Shown here piece by piece: positions 18,311 through 61,469 of a stretch of DNA of 64,000 bases. The notes under the pieces are model-generated. The model did no database searches. It was given only the letters and a program-made list of their open reading frames with translations, and was not told the DNA's origin. How positions within the stretch are numbered: position 1 is the stretch's first letter; every line of letters begins with the position of its first letter. Made by a program: the position numbers and the translations under genes. The stretch comes from Patescibacteria group bacterium (GTDB taxonomy: Bacteria > Patescibacteriota > Patescibacteriia > UBA9934 > GWF2-40-263): contig JBAZTR010000001.1 in the NCBI GenBank assembly GCA_041661745.1, positions 300,306 through 364,305 of the forward strand, given 5' to 3'.

Positions 18311-18473
18311 TAAGTCGTCTTGTGTTGCGATGGTTTCACTAAATCACAAGGATAAAGCGAAGAGTCGCAACGAAATTTTACGGGACTACCCGCAGGCAGG
18401 TGGGGCCGAGCGAACTCGGCCCCACCGCCCTCCATTGATTTACTCAATAGATTTTTTCGGACTTTGGCTACGA

Positions 18474-31035: not shown

Positions 31036-32551
31036 ACGACAAAGCTACAATAAAACCACCATATAACCACAGATAAAAAGCCAACGTTCTAACCTCGAGG
31101 AAAGTGGCCAAAAAGGCATTCAGGGCCACGGCAATCATGGCCGCGGCAAAGCCAAGGGAAAGCGCCCGCAAAAATGGATCGTTTTTTGTATCGCGATACG
31201 CCATTAAAGAATAGGTGAACAAAGCCAGATACATCCAAATATAAAAAGCTAAACCAAGCGTGCCGGTTTCTCCCCATAACGAAAACCAGTTGTTATCAAT
31301 ATAGCCGTCGGTACCGTAAACCCCAAAAGGCAAACCAAGCTGTTCGTAAACATGAGTATTGTTCAGGGCGGCCACAGCCCCACCACCGTATTGCCCAGGT
31401 CCAAAACCAAACAAAGGCGCGGCCGGCACCACCGTGGTTACGGTTTGAACCATCCAGTACAACCGACCCATGCCATAATATTCTCCCCGCCATCTTTCGT
31501 AAGAAAAAGTTTCGTAGAATCTTTCGACAATAGTTTGTTGAGGTGTATCAATTAAATAGCTAACCATCAAACCAGAATAAGCTAAATACCCCACCAGGAT
31601 TGCAACAATTGATAGCGAAGCAACTAATACTTTTTTATCCTTTTTAATCCATAAAGCGATAAACAAAAAGCCGAGAAGAAAACCAAACCAAGCCGAACGA
31701 GAGTAAGTAAGAACCAAAGCAGGAAGACCAATAACAAAAGTTGTCCAGATAAATTTTTTACCAATTTCGCTTCCCTTCTTCATTTGATAAAGAATAGCCG
31801 AAGCTATAACCAAAAAGAAAGCTAAAAATGTTCCAAGACGATCGTATCGCCCAAGTGTCGCAAAAACCCGCGTCCCTGACTCCCAGGTTTGCGCCACCCC
31901 GGAAGTTAAAACCATTTCGCCGAAGGTTCTGGTTTCGGAAGGCAGAAGTAATAAATCAAGCTGTTCACCAATAATCGCTTGAACAATGCCCAGGCCAGCT
32001 TCAAACAAAACCACGGCCAACAAGGCCAGAGTTATTTTTTTGACAAAGGATCGATCCGGCCGCAAATAAATAACAACAAAAAAGATTAGAATAAAGCGAA
32101 TAATCTGTCGTAAACCCAAAATAGCAATGGACGGCTCGACAAAATTAATTATTGCCGAAGAAATCGCGACAACCAAAAATAAAACAAAAGGTAAATTTAT
32201 TGGGGTGCTTTTAATTTTTAACTTTCCGTTAATTGCCCGCCACACAACCACGGCACACAAAAGGTAAATCAAAACTTCAGAAAAATATCGAGCAAAAACA
32301 TAAATATCATCTGGAACAAATTTCAAAACAAACGGCTCAAAAGGCAAATAGACGGCAACAAAGGCTAAGGTCCAAAGTGGCCGTAAAATGGTCAAAATAA
32401 CAAAACAAACACCGATAACGATTGATAAAATCGTTAGGCCTGAATAAACGGATTGCAAAGCAATCAGTCCGGCCAACAGAAAAAAAAGTCCGGCCGCATA
32501 CCAAGCGGTATTTTCTTCGGCGTTTTTGTATATCCCCCTAAAGTCTGGCAT
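31013..32551 (-). CDS. O-antigen ligase/polymerase-like (Wzy_C) polytopic membrane protein
   Basis: 512 aa, more than 10 TM helices, with a periplasmic loop carrying RSAWFGFLLGFLF, the typical Wzy_C region. Confidence 0.55.
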   Translation of the reverse strand: MPDFRGIYKNAEENTAWYAAGLFFLLAGLIALQSVYSGLTILSIVIGVCFVILTILRPLWTLAFVAVYLPFEPFVLKFVPDDIYVFARYFSEVLIYLLCAVVVWRAINGKLKIKSTPINLPFVLFLVVAISSAIINFVEPSIAILGLRQIIRFILIFFVVIYLRPDRSFVKKITLALLAVVLFEAGLGIVQAIIGEQLDLLLLPSETRTFGEMVLTSGVAQTWESGTRVFATLGRYDRLGTFLAFFLVIASAILYQMKKGSEIGKKFIWTTFVIGLPALVLTYSRSAWFGFLLGFLFIALWIKKDKKVLVASLSIVAILVGYLAYSGLMVSYLIDTPQQTIVERFYETFSYERWRGEYYGMGRLYWMVQTVTTVVPAAPLFGFGPGQYGGGAVAALNNTHVYEQLGLPFGVYGTDGYIDNNWFSLWGETGTLGLAFYIWMYLALFTYSLMAYRDTKNDPFLRALSLGFAAAMIAVALNAFLATFLEVRTLAFYLWLYGGFIVALSYENRARQ

Positions 32552-32589
32552 GTGGTTATTTTATCACATTTTATTTGCTAGATGAAGAG

Positions 32590-32640
32590 AAATAAAAAAG
32601 ACGCGCGTTCCACCAGGTGTGTCCTAGTAGTCGCGCGTCG
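32590..32640 (-). terminator. intrinsic terminator of the first island-2 lipoprotein gene
   Basis: Minus-strand read: stem gacgcgcg/cgcgcgtc followed by UUUUUU. Confidence 0.45.
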
Positions 32641-32668
32641 GAAGTGGCCGACCTGCCTTCAGGCCGGT

Positions 32669-34258
<1,590 letters not shown>

Positions 34259-34467
34259 TGGGGTGAAGGATCTATATCAACCTGTTTTTAACTCTTTTAA
34301 GCTAAAAAGGATCAAAAACAGATTGAAATTTTCAACGCCATATTTCAACATTTTTTAAAGCTTTTGTCAATATCTAGTGAGGATATTTTAACAAAAACAA
34401 TAGACCTCCGATCGCGTCCCACCCAGAGGGGGTAGAACACGTCGGAGGTCTGAGGCTCCCCTGCTAG

Positions 34468-35559
34468 CTAGAGGCTGCAGAGGAGGTCGTAGCCGCCCAC
34501 TCCGTTCGAGAGGGGGTAGCAATCGGAAGTGGCGGTGGCGCCGATGGTCAGCGCGACGCCGTTGAGGGCGATGCCGGTGATGTGGACGACGGGCCCGTAT
34601 TCCACGAGCCAGCCGCCCGACCTGACGCCGTTCAGCTGTACGTTCGTGGCGCTGGCCGCGAGACCGGTGGCGAAGGTCGAGGAGGTCCCGGCCGCGACCG
34701 AATCGCAGCCAGATGCTCCGCCGAACCAGTGGGACCAGTCGCCGCCGGCCGCGTAGCACAGGGACCACGCACTCGAGGAGACGGTCGAGTCGACGGTGAC
34801 GACCAGGCCGTTGTCGACCGTGTCGTCGCAGTCGTTGTCGATGAGGTCGCCGGCGACTTCAGTCGCGCCGGGGTGAATGGTGACGTCGGTGTCGTCGCAG
34901 TCGCGGCCCGAGGCGGCACCGCAATCGACGCCGTACCCGTCGCCGTCTTCGTCTACTTCGGCGCCGGCGAAGCAGACGCCGGAGTCGCAGTAGTACGTGT
35001 AGCACGCGTCTGCCGGGCAGTCCGCGTCCGTCACGCACTCGGGCTCGACATCCGTGTCGGTGTCCGTGTCGGTATCGGTGTCGCTGTCGGAATCCGTATC
35101 GGCATCGGAATCGGAATCGGTATCGGTGTCCGAGTCCGTATCCGCGTCGGTGTCGCTGTCCGTGTCGGCGTCGGTATCGGAATCGGTGTCGCTGTCGGCA
35201 TCCGTATCCGCATCCGTGTCCGAGTCGCTGTCGGCGTCCGTGTCGGTGTCGGACTCTCCGGTATCGCCGGTGTCCCCGACGCCGGTGTCACCGGTGTCCG
35301 TATCGGTGTCGGAATCGGTATCGCTGTCGGCGTCCGAATCCGAGTCGGCGTCGGTATCCGTGTCGGCTTCGCCGGTGTCGGCCGTGTCGGTCTTGCCGGT
35401 GTCGCTGGTATCACCAGTGTCGGTGTCCTCGGTACCGGTGTCGTCGACAATCTCGACGCCGGTGTCCTGCTGACCACCACTCACCACCGACGGGGCATAG
35501 CAGCCCCAGAGGGTGAAGGAAGCGGCGAAGGCGAGGACGAGGGTCAGGGCGCGGTTCAT
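34468..35559 (-). CDS. high-GC lipoprotein with a long poly-(Asp-Thr/Ser) acidic linker and a C-terminal Cys-rich domain containing one MopE-like repeat
   Basis: Start [20 protein letters not shown] (lipobox; ATG at 35557-35559, GGAG RBS). [17 protein letters not shown] low complexity, then [23 protein letters not shown] ... [14 protein letters not shown]. Confidence 0.65.
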
Positions 35560-35754
35560 GGGAGTCTCCGGGTTGACTGGGTGCTGCCTCAGTTTTTTCC
35601 CTAAAACCAATACGGCTTGTTGGGATTGGGCAGCGTCTGAAAGGGCTTTGTTCAGGGTCTTTTAAGACCTTAAACAAGCATTAAATAATACCACAAAAAA
35701 GGCCTTTTGTCAACCGTGATAGGGGGCCTTTTGGTGGGGGCTTTTTGATAAATT

Positions 35755-35805
35755 TAGGCGGCGTTCGGGCATTAAAGGGCTTTAAAGGGCGTTAAGGCAA
35801 GGAAA
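35755..35805. repeat. 'gggcgttaagg' short-tandem-repeat element, copy inside island 2
   Basis: taggcggcgttcgggcattaaagggctttaaagggcgttaaggcaaggaaatattt. Related copies at 11215-11262 (reverse complement), 38536-38640 and 39035-39110. Confidence 0.55.
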
Positions 35806-35895
35806 TATTTAAAAAAAATACGACCCCCGGACCACTCGCTTCGCCTTGGGAGGCAAAGAAGTGGTACAGGGGCCGAAGCCCGCAGGATGAAGTCC

Positions 35896-36666
35896 TTACG
35901 GGAGGATGTCGAGGACCTGGGCCTCGCACCCGTCGACGACGCCGGTGGTCTTGTGGTAGATGCTGATGACGGGGTCGCTCGACGACCCGTCCTCGCACTC
36001 GACCACGACCTGGTGCGTGCCGACCAACTGGTCGTCCGCCTCGTCCTCCGTGGTGCTCTCGCACCCGTAGCGGACGAAGTAGGGCTCGGACTCGAACTGG
36101 TACGTCACGTTGTACCGGAGGTCCGAGGAGGCCGACAGGTAGGCCTGGAACTCGACGGAGATGCCGACCTCGTACTCCACCGACCAGATCTCGTCCCAGC
36201 CGGTGTAGTTGTCGTCGACCTCCATCGAGAGGGTGAGGATGTCGGCCGCCTCGCTGCCGGGGACGGTCCAGTCGACGTTGATCGTGCAGAGCACCTCTTC
36301 GTCGCAGCCCTCGTCGGTGTCGCCGTCGCAGTCGTCGTCGATGTCGTTGCAGACCTCCTCGGCGTCGGGGTTGACCTCGGCCTTGGTGTCGTCGCAGTCG
36401 GTGTCGTCCGCGACGTAGCCGTCGGGGACGGTGGTGGCCTCGACCTTGAGGTTGGGGTCGCCGAAGCCGTCGCCGTCGAGGTCGCGGTACCAGGTGGTGT
36501 CCGCGCCGGTGTCGGTGTCGGCGTCGGTGTCCGAGTCGGAGTCGGTGTCGGCGTCCGTGTCGGTGTCGCAGTCGGTGTCCTCGGTGTCGGGGCCGTCCAC
36601 CTTGGAGGTGGGGTAGGCGCAGGCGTTGACGAGGGCGAGGAACGCGAGGGAGAACAGGTAGCGCAT
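35896..36666 (-). CDS. high-GC lipoprotein with a DT-repeat linker, one MopE-type repeat and a C-terminal beta-rich domain
   Basis: Start MRYLFSLAFLALVNAC (lipobox; ATG at 36664-36666, GGAGA RBS), then [19 protein letters not shown], then YRDLDGDGFGDPN...CDDTKAEVNPDAEEVCNDIDDDCDGDTDEG. Confidence 0.65.
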   Translation of the reverse strand: MRYLFSLAFLALVNACAYPTSKVDGPDTEDTDCDTDTDADTDSDSDTDADTDTGADTTWYRDLDGDGFGDPNLKVEATTVPDGYVADDTDCDDTKAEVNPDAEEVCNDIDDDCDGDTDEGCDEEVLCTINVDWTVPGSEAADILTLSMEVDDNYTGWDEIWSVEYEVGISVEFQAYLSASSDLRYNVTYQFESEPYFVRYGCESTTEDEADDQLVGTHQVVVECEDGSSSDPVISIYHKTTGVVDGCEAQVLDILP

Positions 36667-36701
36667 GGGAATCTCCACGAAAGCGGCCCGAATCGGGCCA
36701 T

Positions 36702-36709
36702 GGGGGGGG
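36702..36709. repeat. poly-G8 tract ~40 nt upstream of the lipoprotein start, preceded by a ggcccgaatcgggcc hairpin
   Basis: ccatggggggggtgtcagg. It is the same arrangement as at the neighbouring island gene. Confidence 0.5.
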
Positions 36710-36918
36710 TGTCAGGGAACGATGAGACTGGGGCTTTCCCCTGGTCTCGATGAACGGTTCACCGAGACGCTGTAGGGTTGAACCACAGTGCTCGGGGCGT
36801 ACATTCAACTAAGTTGAAGATACATCCTGAAAACTATGATTGATAGATTAAGTTGAATAATCTGGGGACGGCAGGCGTATCGCTACGCGTGCCGCCCCAG
36901 ACAGAGTTGTTGTCCCTC

Positions 36919-38298
36919 CTAGTAGGCGAAGACCAGCCCGCCCTGGACGAAGGTCATCCCCGCCCCGTCGATGTCCTGCCCGGTGGCGGACAGGACGGAC
37001 CGGACGCCCGTCCCGACCTTGAACCCGCCGGTGAGGGCGAGGCCGTTGGTCAGGAGGTAGGAGGCGTAGGCACCTCCGTGGATGCCGTAGCCCTCGACCT
37101 CGCCCTCGCGGCCGACCACGCCGGTGGAGGCGTAATAGCCGCCGACGGTCGCCCCGATGCCCAGGCGATCCCAGTCGTATCCGACCGTGGGGCCAGCCAG
37201 GAAGCGGACGCCGCGCTCGGACGGGACCCAGCCGCCGACCACCTCGACTCCGGCGTTGAGGCCGTTGTCGAAGGGGTGGCCGTGGAGGCTGGTGGAGACG
37301 GCCGGGGCGATGAAGCTGCCCGATCGGAGCTCCTGCCCGTCGGCGTCGACCACGGGGGTCTGCACGCCGGCGATGAGGGCCGCACCGACCGTGCCACCGA
37401 GATGGCTGGAGGTGTGGGTGTCGAGCTTGTCGGAGACGGCCTTGGCCTCGGCCTTGGCGCCGTCGGCCGCGGACTTGGCCTCGCCGATCTCCGCGTCCTG
37501 CTCACGCTCGATCCGGACGAGCTCGGCGCGGAACTGATCCTCTTCCGACTTGTGGGCCGCGACGGCTGCGTCCCGCTCGGTGCGGTACTGCAGCCAGGCC
37601 GCGCCGTCGGCGTCGCCGTTGGCTTCGATGGCACGCTGCAACTCGGCGTCACGGGCGGTGAAGCCGGTGTGCGCCTCGGTGTCCGCTTCCGTGTGGGTCT
37701 GGAGCGCGGCGGCGTTGTCGGCCGCGGCCTTGCGGGCGCGGGCGTCGTAGCCGCCGGACCCCGCGCCGCCGTGGATGGCGTCACAGGTTCCTTCCCACTT
37801 GTGGGTCTGGTCGTTGCGGTAGATCCGCCAGACGAACCCGACCCCGAACTGGGAATCGGCGGCGCTTTCCTTCTCCGTGCAGTTGCAGACGCCGCGGTAG
37901 ACGATCCAGGTGTGGCCGAGACCTTCGCAGGCCTCGATCTGGTCGCGCGCCTTGACGAACACGGGGGACGCCGGGTCGGCCTGGGCGGGCATGAGCCCGA
38001 TGGTCCAGGCGGCCTTGTCGGCCGAGGTCGGGGTGGGGACGGTGGGCGCGACAGGGGAGACGAACTTGTTGGTGTCGTCCGGCTCCATGCCAGCGCACTC
38101 GGCGAACGACTTCATCCCGCTGGGGCGGGCGACGGCGTTCACGGCACTCGACTCGAGGCAGTAGCCGTCGGCGTCCTTGTCCTGGTACCACCATCCCTGG
38201 TGGGGGTTGGCGGGCGGGGGGACGGGCGTGCCGGTGGCGGCGGTGGCGACGAACGGGAACACGATGGCCGCGATTGCGGCGAAGACGATGGACCGCAT
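36919..38298 (-). CDS. high-GC secreted protein: Cys-containing N-domain, central coiled coil, Gly-rich C-terminal beta-rich domain ending ...GGLVFAY (outer-membrane-barrel-like)
   Basis: Signal peptide MRSIVFAAIAAIVFPFVATAATG with AGGAGG RBS 7 nt upstream. The C-terminal ~140 aa alternates Gly/aromatic residues and ends in an aromatic residue. Confidence 0.55.
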   Translation of the reverse strand: MRSIVFAAIAAIVFPFVATAATGTPVPPPANPHQGWWYQDKDADGYCLESSAVNAVARPSGMKSFAECAGMEPDDTNKFVSPVAPTVPTPTSADKAAWTIGLMPAQADPASPVFVKARDQIEACEGLGHTWIVYRGVCNCTEKESAADSQFGVGFVWRIYRNDQTHKWEGTCDAIHGGAGSGGYDARARKAAADNAAALQTHTEADTEAHTGFTARDAELQRAIEANGDADGAAWLQYRTERDAAVAAHKSEEDQFRAELVRIEREQDAEIGEAKSAADGAKAEAKAVSDKLDTHTSSHLGGTVGAALIAGVQTPVVDADGQELRSGSFIAPAVSTSLHGHPFDNGLNAGVEVVGGWVPSERGVRFLAGPTVGYDWDRLGIGATVGGYYASTGVVGREGEVEGYGIHGGAYASYLLTNGLALTGGFKVGTGVRSVLSATGQDIDGAGMTFVQGGLVFAY

Positions 38299-38535
38299 GG
38301 TGTGGTCCTCCTGTGGTGCTGCGGGTTGTTGTTGCCCCGGAGGGGGCTAGAAGCCACTCCGGGGCGGAATGGCAGATTTGATAGAACAACTACAGGCGCA
38401 ATAGGATCGCGCACTGGAAAGGCTTGGCATCGGCTTTCACTACGAGGAGGAGACGCAGTGAAAGGATGTCTAGCCGTTCCGGGGCACGAGTTGTTTTTTT
38501 AAGTGACGTTTGGGCTCTATAGGCTTTTTTGTCTA

Positions 38536-38640
38536 AGCGGCGTTCCACCGTCGCTCGAGGCGAGCTATGGCGGACACGGTCGGGCGTTACAGGGCTTTAA
38601 GGCCTTATAGGGCTTTAAAGGGCCTTAAGGGGGGTTTTAG
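38536..38640. repeat. 'gggcgttaagg/gggctttaaagg' repeat element at the upper boundary of island 2
   Basis: ctaagcggcgttccaccgtcgc...gggcgttacagggctttaaggccttatagggctttaaagggccttaaggggg. Confidence 0.5.
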
Positions 38641-38814
38641 GCTAATTTTTCCGCCATGTTCTGAACGACGTAATGTATCAGGTTTTGGCATTTTTGTCAA
38701 GAGTAAATGGGCTTATACCCCCTCCTTTCCACAACGAATGGGGTAACCCTCGCTATTAGGCCCCCTCCCCCAAATCAAATGAGGACACCCTCCCCCTTTG
38801 GTGGAGGGATTTAT

Positions 38815-38935
38815 TTGGCTAAAATAACAAAAAATCCGACAGGTCGGCTTGGCACTCGCGGGTCAGGACGAGGAGGAGACGTTCTGACCGCTGTTACCAA
38901 GCCGACTTGGCGGACTTTTATTTTCTTGTGAAGCC
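38815..38935 (+). ncRNA. candidate structured small RNA or terminator: a long imperfect hairpin (gtcggcttgg...ccaagccgac arms) followed by a U-tract
   Basis: aaaaaatccgacaggtcggcttggcactcgcgggtcagga...tctgaccgctgttaccaagccgacttggcggacttttattttc in a ~690-bp ORF-free stretch. Confidence 0.3.
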
Positions 38936-39034
38936 TAAGTTATCAGTTTGTTTGGTGGTCGTCAAGCGCCTTTTTTGGGTCTATTGGAGGGACTGTGGAG
39001 ACTGAGATACTGAGGGGGGTATTTAATAATAAGC

Positions 39035-39110
39035 GGCATTCGGGCGCTATGGGGCGTTAAGGTTTTAAGGCGTTACGGGGCGTTAAGGCGAGGAAGTTAT
39101 TTCTTTAATT
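39035..39110. repeat. 'gggcgttaagg' repeat element, copy
   Basis: aagcggcattcgggcgctatggggcgttaaggttttaaggcgttacggggcgttaaggcgaggaagttatttc. Confidence 0.5.
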
Positions 39111-39188
39111 CCTTAAGTTCATCAAATCTTTTTTCCGACATAAGCCTTAATGCCCGATTGCCGCTTAGACATAGAGCCCGTACACCAC

Positions 39189-39752
39189 CTAGTCAACCAC
39201 TCCCTCAGTCTCCCCAAAAACACCTTCCGCTACTTGTTCAGACGGAGCCGCAATATCATCCCGAGCTTCGCGAGTAATAATCACCCGATCGTAGGAAACA
39301 ATATCAGAATGCTCGCCAGCCCATTCCAAAACAAAATCACCATCGTCATCAGTAACCATTTCACCGGTGGAGAAAAAATCATAAGGCGCTTGGCGCACCA
39401 GCCAGCCTTCGTAAAATTCGGTTTCGCGATTTATTTCCGGTAAGGAAACTTTTATTGTGTGATACAAAATTCCTTTTTCAATACCACGTTCGGCGGCGCC
39501 AACTTCTAAATTACTAGACAAACTTTTTACCACGGTTGTTTGTTTTGCCAGAACAACAATCGGCGCGGCCACGACTTCCCCGCTCTCGGCAACAATTTCA
39601 GAAGTATTATTTTTTGCCGCGTTATTTTTTTGACTGGTCCGCAAATAAAAAAGTCCGACGCCGGAAATTATCAAAGTTAAAATTCCCATTCCAATTATTT
39701 GCAGTGGCAAACGAAAACGCGACTTGTTTTTTTGGTGGCTGTGATAATACAT
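39189..39752 (-). CDS. membrane-anchored hypothetical protein
   Basis: 187 aa with an N-terminal TM (LQIIGMGILTLIISGVGLFYL). Confidence 0.45.
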   Translation of the reverse strand: MYYHSHQKNKSRFRLPLQIIGMGILTLIISGVGLFYLRTSQKNNAAKNNTSEIVAESGEVVAAPIVVLAKQTTVVKSLSSNLEVGAAERGIEKGILYHTIKVSLPEINRETEFYEGWLVRQAPYDFFSTGEMVTDDDGDFVLEWAGEHSDIVSYDRVIITREARDDIAAPSEQVAEGVFGETEGVVD

Positions 39753-39753
39753 A

Positions 39754-39802
39754 CCCTCTCCCCATCCCTCCCCCGTATGAGGCCATACGAGGGAGGGAGA
39801 AT
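39754..39802. repeat. C-rich hairpin repeat, family 1a, copy A
   Basis: ccctctccccatccctcccccgtatgaggccatacgagggagggagaat; arms ctccctcccccgtatg/catacgagggagggag. Near-identical copies at 43975-44023 and 55436-55484. Confidence 0.7.
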
Positions 39803-39810
39803 AAAGTAAT

Positions 39811-41874
39811 TTAAAGTTCGTCGATATCCCTTAAAAATCCCGAACGTTTTTTAGTTTCAGGTTTTGTTTCACCGTATTTGTCCAAAACAATTGTCGGGCC
39901 ATCGTCAAATTCCCCCCAATCCCTTCCCAACCCTTCAGGACCCTTCCCAACCCTTCTTTTCTCTTCCATTATACCCCGCGGTAACTCTGATAAAAACATG
40001 GAAGGTTGACCAAACGAAAAATCACTGCTGCCACCACGATTATCAGACAAGGCATAGGTTAAATACAGGCGATCACGAGCTCGAGTGGTGGCCACATAAA
40101 ACAAACGGCGTTCTTCCTCAATTGTTCCTTCGGCCAAAGCGCGCGGATTTGGAAATCCGCCATCTCTGAGGCCGATAACAAAAACTGCGTCCCATTCCAA
40201 ACCTTTGGCTTGATGGATAGTGGAAAGAATAATTCGTTCGGCCGGGTCAGTGCGCGCGGCCCCGTAATTTTCGGCCAAAGTAACGTCATCAAGAAAAGTG
40301 GTTAAATCAGTGGCCGACTCGGCAAAGGTGGCAAATTGTTCAAGGTCATCAAGGCGATCGCGGAAATCGGGTTGCTCGGCTTCCAAATAATCACGATACC
40401 CTTGGGCGACCACGGCGCGAATCATGTCAGAAGGATGGGTGGCGGCCAGCATGTGTTTTAAAACTCCGCGACACAATTCCCAACCGCTAGCCGCGCGCGT
40501 GGGCGACAAACCTTCGGGTGATATTGCCTCGGCCAAAGTTTCAAACTGTCTAACTTGATCCAAAATCTTTCCGGCCGTACTCGCCCCAATGCCCGGATAA
40601 AGACCAAGTACGCGAAGCCAAGCGGCTTCATCTTTCAAATTAGCCAACACCCGCAAGTGTGAGGTGACATCTTTAATATGAGCACGCTCAAAAAAACGCA
40701 TACCACCGCGAAATTCGTATGGGGTGTTACGTTTCATTAATTCGTATTCAAGCGGCTGGGCGTGGAAAGCGGCCCGGAATAAAACAGCGATTTCTTTAGT
40801 CGGCACACCAGAGGCTTTAAGTCGAACAATTTCATCGGCCACGTGACGCGCTTCGTCGGTAATTGTCGCCGTGGTGACGACTTTTGGTCTGTTGCCTTCT
40901 TTCTTCATTGCTATTAACGGTTTATCAAATTGCTGACGATTATTTTTAATAATCGCGTTAGCCAGTCCTAAAATTTGCGGTGAAGAACGATAGTTGGCGG
41001 TTAAACGAAAAACTTTTGTGCCAGGATAGGTTTGTGGAAAATCCAAAATATTTTTAATCTCGGCCGCCCGAAAAGAATAAATACTTTGCGCGTCATCACC
41101 AACGACTAAAAGATTTCGATGAACACTGGATAGCAACTGAACAATTCTCGCCTGAATACGATTGGTATCCTGAAATTCATCAACCAAAACATAACGAAAC
41201 TGCGTGGCTAAACGTTCACGAACATCGGGACGCTTTTCTAAAAGTTCCAAAAATAATAAAAGCAAATCATCAAAGTCAACAGCATCGGCCGTGTGTTTGC
41301 GATCTTCGTACAGTTCGATTACATGTTCCAAGGTTGGAGCCATCATAGCCAAGGCCGGACTGCGATCTTCAAGCACCTGACGCAAGCCAACCCCGGCATT
41401 CCTGGAATAACTGTACATTGATTGAAAAGAATTTGGCGAAGGAAAACGCTTGTCGCGCGAGCCATCGGCCCCGGCATCTTTTAAGCACAATTTGATTAAG
41501 GCTTTAGAGTCGTCTTCGTCAAGAATTGTAAAACCATTGGTATGCCCGACCAGCGGCGCATAGGTACGAAGAATACGACTGGCTGTGGAGTGAAAGGTGC
41601 CACCCTTCACCCCTGTTTCCCCTCTCCCTAAGGGAGAGGGGTTGGTTAGGGCAGTAACCCGATTCAACATCTCTTTGGCGGCTTTGTTGGTAAAGGTTAA
41701 AAGCAAAATTTCGTTGGGGGAAATTCCCTGTTCTAAAAGATAAGCCACACGGTAGGTAACCGTGCGGGTTTTGCCAGAGCCGGCCCCAGCTAAAACAAGA
41801 CAAGGGCCGTCGCCATGGAGGACAACTTCAAGCTGTTCGGGGTTGAGTTCTTTCTGGTAATCAATATTATTCAC
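39811..41874 (-). CDS. uvrD: ATP-dependent DNA helicase, UvrD/PcrA family
   Basis: Walker A GAGSGKTRTVTYRVAYLL, motif Ia TFTNKAAKEM, GTFHS, and the QDTN and VGDDAQSIYSFRAAE motifs, with a C-terminal extension. Confidence 0.85.
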   Translation of the reverse strand: MNNIDYQKELNPEQLEVVLHGDGPCLVLAGAGSGKTRTVTYRVAYLLEQGISPNEILLLTFTNKAAKEMLNRVTALTNPSPLGRGETGVKGGTFHSTASRILRTYAPLVGHTNGFTILDEDDSKALIKLCLKDAGADGSRDKRFPSPNSFQSMYSYSRNAGVGLRQVLEDRSPALAMMAPTLEHVIELYEDRKHTADAVDFDDLLLLFLELLEKRPDVRERLATQFRYVLVDEFQDTNRIQARIVQLLSSVHRNLLVVGDDAQSIYSFRAAEIKNILDFPQTYPGTKVFRLTANYRSSPQILGLANAIIKNNRQQFDKPLIAMKKEGNRPKVVTTATITDEARHVADEIVRLKASGVPTKEIAVLFRAAFHAQPLEYELMKRNTPYEFRGGMRFFERAHIKDVTSHLRVLANLKDEAAWLRVLGLYPGIGASTAGKILDQVRQFETLAEAISPEGLSPTRAASGWELCRGVLKHMLAATHPSDMIRAVVAQGYRDYLEAEQPDFRDRLDDLEQFATFAESATDLTTFLDDVTLAENYGAARTDPAERIILSTIHQAKGLEWDAVFVIGLRDGGFPNPRALAEGTIEEERRLFYVATTRARDRLYLTYALSDNRGGSSDFSFGQPSMFLSELPRGIMEEKRRVGKGPEGLGRDWGEFDDGPTIVLDKYGETKPETKKRSGFLRDIDEL
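41619..41641. repeat. perfect palindrome cccctctccctaagggagagggg inserted in-frame inside uvrD (encodes ...NPSPLGRGETG... between motif Ia and GTFHS)
   Basis: The 23-bp palindrome resembles the arms of the intergenic C-rich hairpin family. The extra ~15 aa sit where UvrD homologues normally have only a short loop. Confidence 0.5.
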
Positions 41875-41906
41875 AGCTGGGATATTTTATCATGAGATCA
41901 AAATCG

Positions 41907-41914
41907 TGTATAAT
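41907..41914 (+). promoter_or_regulatory. extended -10 promoter element TGTATAAT for the Cache-domain gene and its leader
   Basis: aaatcgTGTATAATgaag, a perfect TGnTATAAT. Confidence 0.5.
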
Positions 41915-41930
41915 GAAGACCGGAGGAAAA

Positions 41931-42002
41931 ATGGAGCTCCGAAAGGAGTATCCCCCTTCGCCCCGCATTCGCGGGGCTACGGCGGGATTATCCGCCTTAT
42001 AG
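41931..42002 (+). CDS. possible 23-codon upstream ORF/leader peptide (MELRKEYPPSPRIRGATAGLSAL) within a GC-rich structured leader
   Basis: GGAGG RBS 4 nt upstream. It overlaps stable hairpins gccccgcattcgcggggc and ggcgggattatccgcc, and is followed by a long hairpin at 42003-42040 before the Cache gene ATG. Confidence 0.25.
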   Translation: MELRKEYPPSPRIRGATAGLSAL

Positions 42003-42061
42003 CGACATCCGTCCGAAGTCGAGCCGTGCTCGACGAAGGCGGATAAATATTAAAATTTTGT

Positions 42062-42607
42062 ATGAAAAAACAAAAGCGAATCAAATACCTGATGACCGCC
42101 TTAATCGTCATTATGGTCGTGTCCGTAGGCTACCTTAGTCTGAACCAGTGTTACCAAAACAAAATGCAAAGACAACGAGTTGTCACGCAAGACGCTTTAA
42201 TTAAAAGCGAAGTGCAAACCGCCGTCAGCATGTTGCAGGGTATCTACGACAAGCATTTACAAGGGACATATTCCACAAGTCAGGCCGAAAAACTTGGAGC
42301 CGACCTTTTGCGAGGTTTGCGCTATAACGGCGACGGGTACTTCTTTGCCGACACTACCGAAGGCGTTAATGTGGTTCTTTTCGGCAGCGATGTTGAAGGT
42401 ACCAACCGCTTAGACGCAAGTTTGAATGGCGTTGATTACGTTAAGGAAATCTTGCTCAAAGGTACCGAAGCTGATGGTGGATATACCAATTACTGGTTTC
42501 CTAAAAAAGATGGCACCGAAGCCAAAGCCAAGCGTGCTTACAGTTTATTATTTGAACCGTTCGGTTGGGTTGTTGGAACCGGTTATTATCTGGAAGACAT
42601 AAAATAA
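42062..42607 (+). CDS. membrane-anchored single-Cache (sCache_2-like) extracellular sensor-domain protein, stand-alone
   Basis: N-terminal TM; GYFFADT...GTNRLDASLNGVDYVKEILLKG...GYTNYWFPKKDGTEAKAKRAYSLLFEPFGWVVGTGYYLEDI matches the sCache_2 consensus. Confidence 0.55.
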   Translation: MKKQKRIKYLMTALIVIMVVSVGYLSLNQCYQNKMQRQRVVTQDALIKSEVQTAVSMLQGIYDKHLQGTYSTSQAEKLGADLLRGLRYNGDGYFFADTTEGVNVVLFGSDVEGTNRLDASLNGVDYVKEILLKGTEADGGYTNYWFPKKDGTEAKAKRAYSLLFEPFGWVVGTGYYLEDIK

Positions 42608-42621
42608 TTTTTTCAAAAAAT

Positions 42622-42650
42622 CCGGGGCAAGACCCCGGTTTTTTGTTTTA
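42622..42650 (+). terminator. intrinsic terminator (ccggggcaagaccccgg plus T-run)
   Basis: Perfect hairpin at 42622-42638 followed by ttttttgtttt. Confidence 0.65.
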
Positions 42651-42651
42651 A

Positions 42652-42690
42652 AAAAACTCGCTGTTGGTGACAGCGAGGCGAGGCATGGCC
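42652..42690 (-). terminator. intrinsic terminator of the high-GC 401-aa gene (minus strand: cctcgctgtcaccaacagcgag plus UUUUUUU)
   Basis: Hairpin ctcgctg/cagcgag directly after the stop codon, sharing the A/T run with the plus-strand terminator. Confidence 0.6.
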
Positions 42691-42691
42691 C

Positions 42692-43897
42692 CTAGAGCGG
42701 TTCTTGAGCCTTCCGCAAGTAGGCGTAGACGACGCCAAGACCGTTCAGGTCGGAGTCCAGGGCCAGGCGAGCGTGCGTGAGGAGGGCCACGACTCGCTCG
42801 GTGACCGGCGTCTTGAAATCGCAATCCAAGGACAACGAGAGCGAGTGGATGATGGCGTCGATGCCGTAGCCCAGATCGACGGTCGGGATTTCTCCCTTGA
42901 GTCGCCGCAAGGCCAGGACAACGGTCATGGCTTCGACGATCTCGCGCTTCACGATGAGGAGGAAGAGCGAACGCAGCGAACGCTCCATGACCACCTTGGC
43001 CTCGGCGTCGTTGCCGTGCTCGAGGAGTTGGGCGGCGTAGGCCGTCTCCCGGGCGACATGACTGAAGGTACGCCGGCCGAACGGAGCAAGCGAAACCGAG
43101 CCGCACCGGTTGGACAACCGCTCGAGCCGCTTCACCATGCCTGGCACACTCTTCGGAGCGAAGTGGCCGTCGGTGAACCTGGCCAGCATGCTGTCGAGTT
43201 CGTGTTCGACTTCGCTGCGGAACTGCCAGGCCTGGTCGAAGACCAGGAGAAGCGCGGTCTGGCGTTGGCCGATCCTGCCGGTGATCTTCCTCACCTCGAT
43301 CCGACGACGACCGAGGCGCCGTTCCGCGGCCCAGATCATTGGCGACAGAGCCGTATACGGAATTGCTTCCCAGCTCTGTTCCGCCCGTGTGGCGAGGTCG
43401 AGAGCCTCGATCTTGAACTTAGCCTGCCAGCGATGCCACCGCTGCACGAAATCGAGCAGATGGCCACGAACCTCTTCCCGCTCGGAAGGCGACGAGGTTT
43501 TCCGAACCACCCAGGTCATGGCCAGGATGATATCCAGACTGGCGGACGAGACCTCGAGGTCGTTGAGATCCTGCGCCTCGGTGCTCGGGATGTGTTCACC
43601 AGTGGCCCTGAGGGCGTCGAAGATGCCGTTGTTGTAGGTCCAGAACTTCACGAGTCCCTGTCGAGCCGAGCGGTTGGCCATGAGGATGGCCCCGCGCTTG
43701 ATGCAGTGTCCCTTGTCATCGGCGTCCACATACTTCACCTCTTCGGCGACAATGTAGACGCGCTCGTCGAGCACTACCTTGACCCGAAGATCGACATAGA
43801 CGTCCTTGGCCACGAGCAGGCGGCGCTCCACGACTGTGTTGTCGGGGTGCGCATCAGAACAAGTTTCGGCGCCAGTGGCGGGATTAAGTCGTGGCAA
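42692..43897 (-). CDS. high-GC 401-aa hypothetical protein (single-gene island); possible nuclease-like N-terminus plus a helical C-terminal domain
   Basis: TTG start with GGAG RBS; promoter TTGACA-N16-TATTCT inside an upstream hairpin. GC3 is ~90%. The N-terminus reads ...VYVDLRVKVVLDERVYIVAEEVKYVDADD (a D...ExK-like pattern). No confident family assignment. Confidence 0.5.
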   Translation of the reverse strand: MPRLNPATGAETCSDAHPDNTVVERRLLVAKDVYVDLRVKVVLDERVYIVAEEVKYVDADDKGHCIKRGAILMANRSARQGLVKFWTYNNGIFDALRATGEHIPSTEAQDLNDLEVSSASLDIILAMTWVVRKTSSPSEREEVRGHLLDFVQRWHRWQAKFKIEALDLATRAEQSWEAIPYTALSPMIWAAERRLGRRRIEVRKITGRIGQRQTALLLVFDQAWQFRSEVEHELDSMLARFTDGHFAPKSVPGMVKRLERLSNRCGSVSLAPFGRRTFSHVARETAYAAQLLEHGNDAEAKVVMERSLRSLFLLIVKREIVEAMTVVLALRRLKGEIPTVDLGYGIDAIIHSLSLSLDCDFKTPVTERVVALLTHARLALDSDLNGLGVVYAYLRKAQEPL

Positions 43898-43974
43898 GAT
43901 TGACTCCGTGGGCTGAATGCCAAAATTGGCGCTTGAAGAATAACAAAAAAGACGGTTTTGTCAATCGTCTTCTG

Positions 43975-44023
43975 CCCTCTCCCCATCCCTCCCCCGTATG
44001 AGGCCATACGAGGGAGGGAGAAT
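43975..44023. repeat. C-rich hairpin repeat, family 1a, copy B
   Basis: ccctctccccatccctcccccgtatgaggccatacgagggagggagaat, 49/49 identical to copy A. It lies between the mltG stop and the island-3 promoter. Confidence 0.7.
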
Positions 44024-44028
44024 AATTT

Positions 44029-45075
44029 TTATCTTAAATACAAAGCTCGATTTTGATTTTGTTCATCATTTGTCGCCGCGTAATGAACTTTGCCGTCGGC
44101 ATCAGTTAAAAAATACCAATAATTATTTTCTGTGGGATAAATTACCGCGTTGATGGCCGATAGACTGGGATTAGAAATTGGCCCGGGGGGCAAGTCACGA
44201 TATTTATAGGTGTTGTAAGGCGAATCAACCGAACGATCGACATCGGAAGTATAAGCTGTTTTGCCGTCACTCCCAACAACAAAATGAACAGTTGAGTCGG
44301 CCTGCAAAGCCATGCCAATATCAAGTCGCCGCCAAAAAATATCAGCCACTATGGCGCGGTCCTCGTCAGAAGTTACTTCCTTTTCAATAATCGAAGCAAG
44401 GGTCACGACATCGTGGACAGATTTACCCTGGCGAATAATTTCGGCCCGCAGCTCTGGTGAAAACTTTTTACTGAAATTGGTTAGGAGTTTATATGTCAAT
44501 TCGTCGGGAAAACCGCTCCGCGAAACGCGATAAGTATCGGGAAATAAATAACCCTCTAACGACTCTTCTTCTTCTAAAGCGCGACGAATAAGTTCGTGCT
44601 CAGATAAAAGAGAGGTTGCCTCCGGCCAGTCGATCTCGGCCAAACTGACTTTCCAATCATTACCCCAACCGTTACCAAAAACCGAATCAATTCGCTCGAC
44701 CATCTGGTCGATCGTCAAACCCTCGGGAAAAGTTATGGTAACTTCATCCGGCGTAATGTCGGTCAGCACATTCACCAGTGAAGCGTAATTCATGCCGGTC
44801 TGTAAAGTGAAATCACCCGGTTGAAACCGATGTTCGACGCCTGTGAACTTTACATAAAACCGAAAGCCCCAACGACTGGGAATTAAATCAGCTTCTTTTA
44901 AAGCCTGGGAAATCTCGCTGACACTTTCACCTGAAACCACGGTTAAAGAAACTTCCGAAGCGTTAGGCCCCGGAGAGCGCAGAAAAGCGTCCCAAACAAA
45001 AGAGGCCCCGACCACGGTCGTGACCAAAATCGCGACGCTGCAAAAAACTATAACGAGATTAATTAATCTACTCAT
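44029..45075 (-). CDS. mltG: endolytic murein transglycosylase MltG (YceG-like)
   Basis: N-terminal TM, then the YceG domain: ...KTAYTSDVDRSVDSPYNTYKYRDLPPGPISNPSLSAINAVIYP...YWYF. Confidence 0.8.
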   Translation of the reverse strand: MSRLINLVIVFCSVAILVTTVVGASFVWDAFLRSPGPNASEVSLTVVSGESVSEISQALKEADLIPSRWGFRFYVKFTGVEHRFQPGDFTLQTGMNYASLVNVLTDITPDEVTITFPEGLTIDQMVERIDSVFGNGWGNDWKVSLAEIDWPEATSLLSEHELIRRALEEEESLEGYLFPDTYRVSRSGFPDELTYKLLTNFSKKFSPELRAEIIRQGKSVHDVVTLASIIEKEVTSDEDRAIVADIFWRRLDIGMALQADSTVHFVVGSDGKTAYTSDVDRSVDSPYNTYKYRDLPPGPISNPSLSAINAVIYPTENNYWYFLTDADGKVHYAATNDEQNQNRALYLR

Positions 45076-46157
45076 AACAAATCGTGTTGTTCTTTTTTTT
45101 GAAGCTCGGAAATTATTTCTTTAACCCGTTGAGCCTGACTTTTTGGACAAACCAGCAAAGCGTCGCCAGTATCAACCACAACAATGTCGTTCATGCCAAG
45201 CACAGCCACAGTCTTCCCTTCTGGAGCGTAAATAAGTGAGCCGGTGGTTTCCACTAAAACGCTGTTACCTTTTACAACATTGCCACCATTATCACACAAA
45301 CGATCATAAAGTGTGTCCCAAGCACCAATGTCGCTCCAACCAAAATCGCCTTTTATAATTAAAACATCGTTCGGGTCCATTTTTTCGGTCACCGCATAAT
45401 CAAAAGATGTTTTTGGTAATCGGGAATACAAATCGCATATATCATCCGTAGGGGCACAAAATTTTGTGCCCCTACGGGCGATTTGTATTTTTCGTAAAAT
45501 TTCCGCCATTTCCGGCGCATATGTTTCAAACGCCTCCATAAACTTTCGCGGTGTCCACATGTAATACGAAGCGTGCCACAAGTACGAACCGTCTTCTAAA
45601 TATTTTTTAGCCACCTCAAACGGCGGTTTTTCGGTGTGACCTAAAAATTCGTAGACTTCGACGCTGTCACGAGTTTCAATTTTTTTTCCAAACTTGGTGT
45701 AACCAAGCACTGTGCTGGGAAAAGACGGCACTACCCCAATATCCAACATCTTACCGGTTTCCAAAATCAACTGTTCGCCAACTTTCAAACAATTCAAAAA
45801 TTTATCTTCATCGCCAATAAAGTGATCGGACGGAACAAAAACAATCGGTTCGTCCGGGTCGTCCAGCTCAAGAGTGGCGGCAACATAGCCCATGGCCGGA
45901 CCAGTGTCACGTTTTTCCGGCTCAACGATAATTTGCTTTTCCGGAAGATCAACAAAATTTTCACGCAAAGTTTTTTCCAAAGCCGCGGACACGGAAAAAT
46001 AAATCTTCTCGGCCGGAAACGACCGCAACAAACGACGATAAGTGTCGCGAATCAAGGGCTCCGCGGAAACCAACTCGCAAAATTGTTTTGGTTTGGCCGC
46101 CCGGCTCATGGGCCAAAGTCTTGTTCCCGAACCGCCGGCAAGAATTACAGCTTTCAT
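45072..46157 (-). CDS. mannose-1-phosphate guanylyltransferase-like sugar nucleotidyltransferase
   Basis: MKAVILAGGSGTRLWPMSRAAKPKQF is the NTP_transferase G-x-G-T-R-L signature; 361 aa. Confidence 0.75.
   Translation of the reverse strand: MKAVILAGGSGTRLWPMSRAAKPKQFCELVSAEPLIRDTYRRLLRSFPAEKIYFSVSAALEKTLRENFVDLPEKQIIVEPEKRDTGPAMGYVAATLELDDPDEPIVFVPSDHFIGDEDKFLNCLKVGEQLILETGKMLDIGVVPSFPSTVLGYTKFGKKIETRDSVEVYEFLGHTEKPPFEVAKKYLEDGSYLWHASYYMWTPRKFMEAFETYAPEMAEILRKIQIARRGTKFCAPTDDICDLYSRLPKTSFDYAVTEKMDPNDVLIIKGDFGWSDIGAWDTLYDRLCDNGGNVVKGNSVLVETTGSLIYAPEGKTVAVLGMNDIVVVDTGDALLVCPKSQAQRVKEIISELQKKEQHDLL
45446..45477. repeat. perfect 32-bp palindrome ccgtaggggcacaaaattttgtgcccctacgg inserted in-frame in the nucleotidyltransferase gene (encodes ...ARRGTKFCAPTD...)
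   Basis: The identical core gtaggggcacaaaattttgtgcccctac recurs in non-coding DNA at 61423-61450, upstream of the tmRNA. Confidence 0.6.
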
Positions 46158-52640: not shown

Positions 52641-52720
52641 GACACGAGTATGTAGTGTGTAGTAGGTAGGCAGAGGCTTAGTTAGTTTCCGCCTACATAC
52701 TACCTACTACGTACTCTGGC
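52641..52720. repeat. intergenic hairpin repeat, 'tacctac' family, copy 2
   Basis: gagtatgtagtgtgtagtaggtaggcagaggcttagttagtttccgcctacatactacctactacgtactc. Confidence 0.6.
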
Positions 52721-55435: not shown

Positions 55436-55484
55436 CCCTCTCCCCAGCTCTCCCCCGTATGAGGCCATACGAGGGAGGGAGAAC
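55436..55484. repeat. C-rich hairpin repeat, family 1a, copy C
   Basis: ccctctccccagctctcccccgtatgaggccatacgagggagggagaac. Confidence 0.7.
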
Positions 55485-60669: not shown

Positions 60670-60720
60670 ATCAATTTAAATTATAAAACAAAATCCCGGT
60701 TGTTTAAACCGAGACTTTGG

Positions 60721-60823
60721 TGTCGAGCTGAGCTCGACTTCACCAAGCTGAGCGTGGTGTATCAGACTGTTTAATCAGGAAAGAAGCTAAGCTTCTTTCC
60801 TTGCCTGTAACTATAAACCAAGC
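60721..60823. repeat. tandem duplication downstream of tmRNA, copy 1 (~105 bp, ~95% identical to 60885-60989)
   Basis: tgtcgagctgagctcgacttcaccaagctgagcg[t/c]ggtgtatca...ggaaagaagctaagcttctttcc...ataaaccaagct. Each copy contains the perfect palindrome ggaaagaagctaagcttctttcc. Confidence 0.6.
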
Positions 60824-60884
60824 TGTAATGATAGGAAGGGGAATGAATTAAAACAAAATCTTGGTCTATGAAACCAAGATATTT

Positions 60885-60989
60885 GTGTCGAGCTGAGCTC
60901 GACTTCACCAAGCTGAGCGCGGTGTATCAAACAGTTTAGCCAGGAAAGAAGCTAAGCTTCTTTCCTTACCTGTAACTATAAACCAAGCT
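60885..60989. repeat. tandem duplication, copy 2, abutting the tmRNA 3' end
   Basis: See copy 1. Its end, accaagctcagcttgg, forms a hairpin with the tmRNA CCA region. Confidence 0.6.
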
Positions 60990-60994
60990 CAGCT

Positions 60995-61402
60995 TGGTGG
61001 AACTGGAGGGAATTGAACCCTCGTCTGGTGAGAGCAACCCGAACGCTTCTTCAAGCGTAGTCCCGCTTGGAATGTGCCTGCGGTGTGATATAAGCGGAAC
61101 AAAACTCACAACGCAGCGCCGGTCGCCTTTTCTTAGTGTCTAGAGACCGGATACCTAGACGCCCAGCCCGAGATTATGACACCTCAATTTCCCTTATCAG
61201 GCGTCGGGGAACGAGATGGGTTGTTTGCCCTTAGGCGACAACCGAAACAAAGCTAGGAACAGCGAACGCTTTCGCGAAGGTGTTCTTCACTTGTGAGAAG
61301 ATATTGGCATTTGCTTCTCTAATACCCAGGATTTACGAGGTAAGGTATGTCCTCGGCTTGCACATTCGGATCGCAGGCTCCCATCGATCCCGATCAGTCC
61401 CC
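60995..61402 (-). ncRNA. ssrA: tmRNA (SsrA), one-piece, ~408 nt
   Basis: Minus-strand 5' end GGGACUGAUCGGGAUCGAUGGGAGCC... 3' end ...GACGAGGGUUCAAUUCCCUCCAGUUCCACCA, giving a T-arm GAGGG/UUCAAUU/CCCUC and an acceptor CAGUUCC pairing with the 5' GGGACUG. Candidate tag reading frame ...GCG AAA GCG UUC GCU GUU CCU AGC UUU GUU UCG GUU GUC GCC UAA. Adjacent to smpB. Confidence 0.75.
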
Positions 61403-61469
61403 CATTGGTGGTAATCAATGGCGTAGGGGCACAAAATTTTGTGCCCCTACGACACCACCAATGGGGGCG
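61399..61469. repeat. composite palindrome immediately upstream of the tmRNA: outer arms cccccattggtgg/ccaccaatggggg around the gtaggggcacaaaattttgtgcccctac core
   Basis: The core is identical to the in-frame palindrome at 45446-45477. Confidence 0.55.

Follow-up and report, generated by a model that had tools for sequence, protein, structure and literature searches.

Palindromes lying in frame in the uvrD and manC-like genes of a Patescibacteria genome as probable copies of REP-type hairpin repeats

Repetitive extragenic palindromic (REP) sequences have been sorted into GTAG- and CGTC-tagged super-families, the GTAG REPs being linked to genes for REP-associated tyrosine transposases (RAYTs), and the intragenic REPs tabulated in the same work include copies in UvrD/REP helicases and CobN (Di Nocera, De Gregorio, Rocco 2013; PMC3733652). 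The classical in-frame palindromic inserts are the Rickettsia palindromic elements (RPEs; Ogata et al. 2000, cited in PMC3733652). The present analysis concerns two palindromes that lie in frame inside genes of a Patescibacteria group bacterium, one in uvrD and the other in a manC-like gene, within a stretch of 64,000 nucleotides (assembly GCA_041661745.1, contig JBAZTR010000001.1, positions 300,306 to 364,305; the whole stretch is hereafter called the window). Both are probably copies of REP-type hairpin repeats that became fixed in insertion-tolerant protein loops. The intragenic REP phenomenon is already known; what is new here is the Patescibacteria host group. In the searchable literature, no link between RAYTs or REP inverted dimers (REPINs) and Patescibacteria was found, and a full-text search for the repeat sequences themselves returned primers or nothing.

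The window comes from a genome of the candidate phyla radiation (CPR; Patescibacteria) near Candidatus Uhrbacteria, and the nearest named relatives of both host proteins are from Uhrbacteria. Each protein also has a 100% identical database entry named as a protein of a Patescibacteria metagenome-assembled genome (MAG), which for UvrD reads 'MAG: ATP-dependent helicase [Patescibacteria group bacterium]'. The host of the first palindrome is a gene for a UvrD/PcrA-type helicase of 687 aa (39811-41874, minus strand), assigned from its open reading frame (ORF), its translation, and Pfam matches to UvrD-helicase (5.5e-77) and UvrD_C; the UvrD of D. radiodurans (4c2t) aligns to it at 1.7e-103. The host of the second is a gene for a mannose-1-phosphate guanylyltransferase-like (ManC) nucleotidyltransferase of 361 aa (45072-46157, minus strand), which matches NTP_transferase and ManC_GMP_beta-helix. 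An earlier reading of the window from its letters alone (the sequence-only reading) had placed a 23-bp palindrome in uvrD at 41619-41641 and a 32-bp palindrome in the nucleotidyltransferase gene at 45446-45477, and the coordinates, sequences, and encoded peptides are all confirmed. The first palindrome, CCCCTCTCCCTAAGGGAGAGGGG, has 11-bp arms and a 1-nt center, and the second, CCGTAGGGGCACAAAATTTTGTGCCCCTACGG, is perfect over its 32 bp. Both lie in frame inside long minus-strand ORFs, and the peptides encoded across them are ...TNPSPLGRGETGVKGGTFHS... and ...ARRGTKFCAPTD..., respectively. Neither palindrome had a match in 100 dinucleotide-preserving shuffles of the window, even with three mismatches allowed. 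An Rfam scan of the whole window found only transfer-messenger RNA (tmRNA), with no known RNA family over any palindrome. CRISPR repeats were rejected as an identity for the palindromes because there is no array.

The ManC palindrome (45446-45477, minus strand) contains a copy of a widely distributed repeat, here called Family A. This unit is perfectly palindromic over 28 bp, its two ends are GTAG and CTAC, and its layout is modular, with conserved outer arms (GTAGGGGC and GCCCCTAC) around a 12-nt center that is variable but self-complementary. In the ManC-like gene the unit GTAGGGGCACAAAATTTTGTGCCCCTAC occupies 45448-45475, and the pairing reaches 32 bp. When one genome per species was scanned with the pattern CGTAGGGGC-N12-GCCCCTACG, matches were found at a minimum of 120 genome loci in more than 15 phyla; the hosts listed include Chloroflexota, Planctomycetota, Cyanobacteria, Gemmatimonadota, Bacteroidota, Acidobacteriota, Desulfobacterota, Omnitrophota, Actinomycetota, Bacillota, Patescibacteria, and others. 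The center is perfectly self-complementary in about 65% of the listed genome matches and has at most one mismatched pair in about 90%, compared with a chance of 1/4096 that a random 12-mer is self-complementary. A second scan, of metagenome contigs with the window's exact 22-nt core, gave at least 118 loci on contigs with GC contents of 29-59%. GTA and TAC flank the core in nearly all of the metagenome loci listed and the next bases outward are not complementary, which defines the unit as the 28-mer; GTAG bounds it in about 100 of the 125 exact-core copies listed. The genome studied here was not among the matches listed from either scan. Clusters and partial tandem copies are present in some other genomes. 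In-frame copies are likewise found elsewhere: the exact 28-mer in IspG (twice), PurL, a YjeF-N-like protein, and others, where it encodes RRGTKFCAPT or VGAQNFVPL, and center variants in CobN, RecG, Mfd, QueA, and a large membrane protein. Recurring peptides of the types RRG..APT, VGA..PLR, and PSP..GRG..GVR in metagenomic proteins are to be read as repeat-derived and not as functional motifs.

Two further observations concern sequences that resemble Family A. The exact window palindromes are absent from IMG/VR viral contigs. With the degenerate pattern GTAGGGGC-N12-GCCCCTAC, by contrast, at least 120 IMG/VR contigs classed as viral or proviral (L251-L370) gave matches, with perfect centers in 79 of 146, and no RAYT-like gene was seen near the pattern on the contigs listed; a phage vehicle is thus no more than a possibility. 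Within the window, an intergenic palindrome at 18399-18426 (GGTGGGGCCGAG-CGAA-CTCGGCCCCACC, with a GTGG head), located 48 nt past the stop codon of a 1323-aa ORF, looks like a relative of Family A.

Clustering the ORFs of the genome loci to find genes linked to Family A gave a RAYT-like family as the only non-housekeeping cluster; it is present in nine genome loci (L016, L043, L070, L084, L089, L094, L104, L110, and L112) and ranks after ABC-transporter ATPases. In these nine of the 120 genome loci listed, the palindrome lies within the RAYT-like ORF or at its 3' end. The metagenome loci form an independent set, in which the RAYT-like gene contains the palindrome (L163 and L195) or lies about 20-50 bp away in nine of the 118 listed. 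In total, the palindrome is in or beside a RAYT-like (IS200-like Y1) gene in 18 of the 238 loci fetched. The encoded proteins are small, carry the motifs ...VIMPNHVHGI... (HUH) and ...WQRNYYEHIIR... (Tyr), and match Pfam PF01797 (Y1_Tnp). In NCBIfam they match best to NF047646 (REP-associated tyrosine transposase), with scores of 58-67 bits that fall short of the 80-bit cutoff. Within these ORFs the palindrome is in frame between the HUH and Tyr motifs, in either of the stop-free frames (RRG..APT or VGA..PLR), and some of the ORFs hold two or three copies. The exception is L089, where the pattern-matching copy overlaps the 3' end of the ORF and further related copies lie inside it. One RAYT-like gene with the palindrome is in a Candidatus Uhrbacteria genome (L110, with L082). 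A palindrome inside the RAYT-like ORF may either regulate the enzyme or merely reflect insertion near the gene. The sequence-only reading had described the palindromes as miniature mobile elements, and this view is supported by the GTAG-ended unit, the more than 100 exact copies, the linkage to RAYT-like genes, and the in-frame copies in unrelated genes.

The second Family A copy in the window is intergenic. The sequence-only reading had reported that the core of the ManC palindrome recurs exactly over 28 nt before the tmRNA (61423-61450); the recurrence is real and extends to 30 nt, with 61422-61451 identical at 30 of 30 positions to 45447-45476. This copy is located in the spacer between smpB (61482-61925, minus strand, 147 aa) and ssrA, the tmRNA gene (60995-61401, minus strand; identified by ARAGORN and by Rfam RF00023 at 118.8 bits). 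A leader hairpin surrounds it at 61399-61467 on the minus strand, with arms at 61399-61412 and 61454-61467 (CCCCCATTGGTGGT / ACCACCAATGGGGG). Its stem is 14 bp, its 'loop' is made up of the 30-nt palindrome and 11 further nucleotides, its 3' arm extends into the start of the tmRNA, and the nested fold reaches -65.6 kcal/mol. In L247-L249, whose SmpB is 90% identical, the spacer hairpin has a 17-bp stem, a 13-nt loop, and a 3' arm that runs into the tmRNA 5' end, and Family A is absent. The window thus has the filled site and these relatives the empty one, and the nested inverted repeat is accounted for by a hairpin that was already there and now holds the element in its loop. In L250, the spacer has two copies of another repeat family (Family B, described below) instead. 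The leader hairpin itself, whose 3' arm takes in the first 3-5 nt of the tmRNA, is kept in relatives (e.g., L247 3445-3510) although its stem sequence is completely different. This hints that its role, in processing the tmRNA precursor or in terminating smpB, is conserved.

For the two gene sites, seven orthologous loci (L001, L002, L003, and L242-L245) were fetched as DNA and compared. The 30 nt CGT...ACG of the ManC element make up ten codons that encode RRGTKFCAPT, and each codon of the first half has a partner in the second half with the reverse-complementary sequence, which indicates symmetry at the level of DNA and not of protein. Seventeen residues separate IQ from LY in the window, compared with 13 in most orthologues and six in a few; the protein is 361 aa long, whereas most orthologues have 357 aa and the shortest 350 aa, giving a net gain of four. 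Peptides of the RRGE[WR]PFAPT type occupy this position in close ManC orthologues (72-85% identity), and the insertion is therefore specific to a clade and not to this genome; the ManC copy is an old orthologous insertion and not a recent landing. The idea that the extra segments of both proteins are lineage-specific insertions holds in that most Uhrbacteria and Patescibacteria orthologues lack them, so that they are not ancestral, and must be adjusted in that a sub-clade (about 72-85% identity) shares them, so that they are not private to one genome.

The ManC site is filled in different ways in these orthologues. It reads CGTAGGGGC-ACAAAATTTTGT-GCCCCTACG in the window, CGTAGGGGC-GAATGGCCATTC-GCCCCTACG in L001, and GGTAGGGGC-ACGAATTTTCGT-GCCCCTACC in both L002 and L003, and L242 has GTTGGGGCGCACCATGGCGCGCCCCAAC, in the other open frame. 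One of these orthologues carries GTTG/CAAC in place of GTAG/CTAC. Across the palindromes of the window, L001, L002, and L242, 96.7% of cells are paired and both sides have changed in eight of the 15 pairs; none of 500 shuffles and no slid register comes near this pairing. The site holds an unrelated 96-nt insert between 9-bp direct repeats (CTCCATCAC) in L243 (10670-10790), an 8-nt tandem repeat, (CTCCACGA)x4, in L244 (3390-3425), and a 7-nt tandem repeat, (CCCCAAA)x3, in L245 (6470-6500). Judging by these last three fillings, several different mutational processes act on the ManC loop.

The element in uvrD (41603-41641, minus strand) consists, on the coding strand, of the palindrome CCCCTCTCCCT-T-AGGGAGAGGGG (41619-41641) followed by AAACA and a GGGGTGAAGGG tail. 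It had been said to add about 15 residues to UvrD. Its coding length is in fact 39 nt, or 13 codons, encoding (N)PSPLGRGETGVKG, and the net gain is five: the loop between RV(x) and GGTFHS has 16 residues, compared with 10-11 in insertion-free orthologues, and is six residues longer than in D. radiodurans UvrD. When the 60 best homologues are aligned, the loop that joins the motif Ia helix to GGTFHS has 11 residues (G-L-L-G-x-x-P-x-G-L-W) in the majority. In the closest relatives (68-84% identity), the inserts at this loop differ in sequence and range in length from none (P0008) to over 50 aa, a Pro/Ser-rich part typically preceding a Gly/Arg/Glu-rich one; in two proteins that are more distant, the loop contains TTPNPSLKRRGTG. 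Among the orthologous loci, L242 has a co-varying palindrome, CCCCTCTCCTG-C-CAGGAGAGGGG plus GGGGTGAGG, in the same place, and in both L242 and the window a GGGGTGARG tail follows. The site has two hairpins in L244, a 56-aa insert in L245, and no insert in L002 and L243, which have short loops.

Both sites are hypervariable, permissive loops, since the orthologues hold other inserts, tandem repeats, or nothing at these positions, and AlphaFold 2 models, computed from alignments of 50 sequences, point the same way. In ManC, residues 229-237 are the loop that links helix 215-228 to helix 238-245, and they fall in the least confident block (predicted local distance difference test score, pLDDT, of 79) of a model whose pLDDT is otherwise 92.8. 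In UvrD, residues 78-89 are coil that leads from the motif Ia helix to the GTFHS strand, and pLDDT drops below 50 at 81-85. Such loops mark permissive sites in UvrD and ManC and imply nothing unusual about the two genes themselves.

The uvrD element belongs to a second family, Family B, with a C-rich arm, a variable inner stem, a G-rich arm, and then a G-rich tail (GGGGWGAGGG type; GGGGTGAGGG-type). Three intergenic copies are present in the window, all on the minus strand, reading ATTCTCCCTCCCTC - inner stem-loop - GGGGGAGGG - 2 nt - GGGGAGAGGG on the transcribed strand, and each follows a stop codon and is oriented with transcription. Copy 1 (39754-39802; ATTCTCCCTCCCTC-GTATGGCCTCATAC-GGGGGAGGG-AT-GGGGAGAGGG) lies between the uvrD stop codon and the next ATG (39752). 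Copy 2 (43975-44023), just past the stop codon of a yceG-like gene, is identical to copy 1 over 49 nt. Copy 3 (55436-55484) has the same inner stem and four differences, three in the G-rich arm or spacer and one at the end of the C-rich arm. The predicted RNA fold of copy 1 is -32.9 kcal/mol (z = -4.2). The element after uvrD is orthologous in L001, L245, L242, and L243, which share its outer modules and have different but paired inner stems, and the Family B architecture was also seen in fetched loci from several phyla. A likeness between the uvrD palindrome and the C-rich intergenic hairpins had been proposed, and it is borne out by the insert in the UvrD loop of L001, AATTCTCCCTCCCTC-ATCGCCACGAT-GGGGGAGGG-GTGGGGAGAGGG, which has all the conserved modules of the three intergenic hairpins of the window. 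The L001 insert is thus a Family B element and connects the copies inside genes with the intergenic ones; the copy in the UvrD of the window represents a sister sub-type with CCCCTCTCCC arms and the GGGGTGAAGGG tail. The G-rich tail GGGGAGAGGG of copy 1 (39752-39765) ends one base before the ATG of the next gene and looks like a strong ribosome-binding site, which could be masked by the C-rich arm. An intrinsic terminator was rejected because no T-run follows any copy on the transcribed strand; the Family B copies are followed there by the G-rich tail and then by the next ATG or an A-rich stretch.

From this distribution, we infer that the palindromes are mobile, and Family A most likely spreads in the manner of classical REP/REPIN elements. 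What is established for HUH/Y1 transposases and for TnpA-REP of E. coli provides the basis for the chemistry, which, like the selection filter and the turnover, we infer here. A RAYT-type HUH/Y1 (IS200-like) transposase would bind the Family A hairpin when it is extruded in single-stranded DNA, cut next to the stem that bears the GTAG tag, and transfer the element to a different single-stranded site, where the target would not be duplicated. Selection would remove copies that disrupt the frame or fall in structured parts of essential proteins, and the survivors would be in-frame copies in flexible loops, translated as a neutral extra peptide (RRGTKFCAPT; PSPLGRGETGVKG). Variants at orthologous sites would arise by turnover, through replacement or conversion from other copies. 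The presence of other, still perfectly paired variants at orthologous sites, together with identical copies within the genome, points to such turnover rather than to passive decay. For pairing to stay perfect through double changes at an orthologous site, while the proteins diverged by 15-26%, something active must be at work, which may be replacement by other family variants, conversion between arms, or selection on the hairpin. Replacement is favored, on indirect evidence, because the window's ManC center is a widely shared variant and the center implied by the RRGERPFAPT orthologues recurs in L086; the L001 center, seen only in L001, sets a limit on this reading. At the ManC, UvrD, and smpB-ssrA sites, no target-site duplication was recognizable, and the orthologues there are too diverged to give exact junctions.

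Several results weigh against reading the palindromes as REP-type mobile repeats. A tblastn search found no RAYT-like gene in the window or in 137 kb from seven relatives. Family A is low-copy in the window, with two identical copies that are both singletons, and each of the relatives' fragments (11-25 kb) has only the ManC copy; the family may be inactive in this lineage. No inverted dimers (REPINs) are formed by the two window copies. The GTAG/CTAC ends of Family A are present at both ends and paired, whereas the tag of a canonical REP is unpaired and at one end only, and the symmetry of Family A, unlike that of a canonical REP, is perfect through the center. Family B has neither a GTAG nor a CGTC tag, and no gene or enzyme linked to it was found. 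The RNA hairpin of the uvrD element, at about -25 kcal/mol, has a z score of only -1.6, owing to its composition. No strain-level presence/absence polymorphism was seen. Persistence of palindrome pairing at an orthologous coding site is also expected from selection on the hairpin. Finally, the elements had been thought able to land in coding sequence while preserving the frame. They are indeed in frame in both genes, but a 28-bp unit is not a multiple of three and cannot itself keep the frame, one frame per strand has a TAG, and two bases beyond the unit, which it does not account for, are required for the 30-nt form that is in frame; the simplest reading of the preserved frame is that only such copies survived.

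An explanation to which we give a low probability is that the hairpins are kept by selection for a host function at these sites, either as mRNA structures that slow ribosomes or set half-life, or as DNA hairpins bound by a host factor. Such selection would account for the perfect pairing at the same codon position of four ManC orthologues, with its double-sided changes and no match among the shuffles, for the similar co-variation of the window and L242 UvrD palindromes, for the very stable ManC hairpin (-31 kcal/mol, z = -8.8), and for the position of the intergenic Family B copies directly past stop codons, with a ribosome-binding-site-like G-rich tail abutting the next ATG. However, the same loops lack a hairpin in close orthologues (the 7-nt and 8-nt tandem repeats of L245 and L244 and the short UvrD loops of L002 and L243), and the identical 28-mer in unrelated genes and intergenic DNA of unrelated organisms means that no gene-specific role is needed. 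The center variants are moreover discrete and widely shared within the family, and not lineage-private drift. An mRNA-level regulatory hairpin had been offered as an alternative in the sequence-only reading, and nothing here requires it.

Similarly improbable is the idea that some active process maintains the perfect symmetry of the palindromes and rewrites them from time to time at fixed coding sites. A RAYT-type enzyme, for example, might cut at the GTAGGGGC/GCCCCTAC arms and exchange the variable inner cassettes of different copies. If true, this would amount to a multi-phylum recombination system that alters loops of about ten codons in essential proteins, including the transposase's own ORF, and it would explain the identical 28-mers in unrelated phyla.

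A local origin, in which template switching during replication perfects a quasi-palindrome and mismatch correction in the extruded hairpin then maintains it with no transposition, appears very unlikely. It would fit a symmetry that is perfect through the center, which is unusual for REPs, as well as arms that co-vary at orthologous sites and a Family A that is low-copy in this lineage, but not the 30-nt identical copy 16 kb away in a different context, the more than 100 copies of the exact 28-mer in other organisms, the tight linkage of Family A to RAYT-like genes, or the identity of two of the three intergenic Family B copies over 49 nt. Finally, that the segments are ordinary ancestral coding sequence, chance, or an assembly artefact is extremely improbable, as it is favored by the intact reading frames and nothing else and is contradicted by the lack of shuffle matches, by the absence of the segments from most orthologues, by the agreement of independent assemblies (L002 and L003 have the same ManC palindrome, which argues against an artefact), and by symmetry at the level of DNA, where each codon in one half of the 30 nt is the reverse complement of its counterpart in the other.

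Other features of the window and its relatives were also noted. The tmRNA gene is followed at once on its 3' side by a direct repeat of about 165 bp (60716-60980); each copy holds a 25-bp palindrome, AGGAAAGAAGCTAAGCTTCTTTCCT (60777-60801 and 60942-60966), and the repeat could be the duplicated attachment site of an integrated element. A third inverted-repeat family of about 70-80 nt with GTAG-rich arms (GTATGTAGTAGGTAG... / ...CTACCTACTACATAC) has two copies (12283-12363 and 52648-52717), both on the minus strand between a stop codon and the next start. The GC content is 56-60% at 16001-20000 and 32001-40000, compared with 43-47% elsewhere. Long, overlapping ORFs are numerous on both strands of these regions, which may be foreign or distinct in composition. 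In L001, a small PDDEXK_3 gene with AT-rich inverted repeats (cgaatatacgaattacgaatt...) on both sides lies between pgk and eno (5047-5690); the window lacks this gene, and its pgk and eno are direct neighbors.

Among the systems already described, IS200/IS605 insertion sequences (ISs) and their palindrome-associated derivatives share with Family A the enzyme superfamily (Y1 HUH, PF01797), the recognition of hairpins in single-stranded DNA, and the expected lack of a target-site duplication. They differ in having two different subterminal hairpins around genes, in place of the single 28-bp hairpin of Family A, and the window contains no full-length IS and no tnpB. The small dispersed repeats of cyanobacteria are reportedly about 20-30 nt long and are said to nest in other repeats or hairpins and occasionally to lie within genes, with no enzyme reported for them. 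Family A resembles them by description, being very short, nesting, and occasionally genic, and the hosts of Family A variants include the cyanobacteria Nostoc, Pseudanabaena, and Leptolyngbya. The RPEs of Rickettsia are similar to the elements studied here as in-frame palindromic repeats in genes that stay functional, adding a neutral peptide at a tolerated place in a small-genome bacterium. They are nevertheless not known outside Rickettsia and are probably unrelated in sequence, and the likeness is functional, between repeats of another phylum and elements of 28-49 nt. RPE-1 is about 100-150 bp long, and no RAYT link is known for it.

A further comparison is with GTAG REP/REPIN and RAYT systems (Nunvar 2010; Bertels & Rainey 2011, PMC3116915; PMC3733652). 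Like these REPs, Family A is short (20-40 bp), GC-rich, and hairpin-forming, and it carries a GTAG tetranucleotide, here paired with CTAC at the other end. Both are mostly intergenic and linked to IS200-like Y1/HUH genes, and both are dispersed, Family A with two copies in the window. In addition, both the REPs and the palindromes described here have occasional in-frame intragenic copies, which for the REPs are reported in UvrD/Rep helicases, CobN, and other repair genes. In comparison, Family A is often inside the RAYT-like ORF itself and not merely beside a RAYT, and its host here is a Patescibacteria genome with no RAYT seen in the window, the RAYT-like proteins elsewhere being below the NCBIfam cutoff. 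Furthermore, identical 28-mers recur in hosts that differ widely in GC content, in contrast to the usual description of REPs as species-specific. A GTAG-ended palindrome family that is tied to RAYT-like genes and shared, sometimes base for base, across many phyla fits poorly with the view of REPs as species-specific and vertically inherited. The present analysis extends REP-type repeats with in-frame intragenic insertions to the reduced genomes of Patescibacteria.

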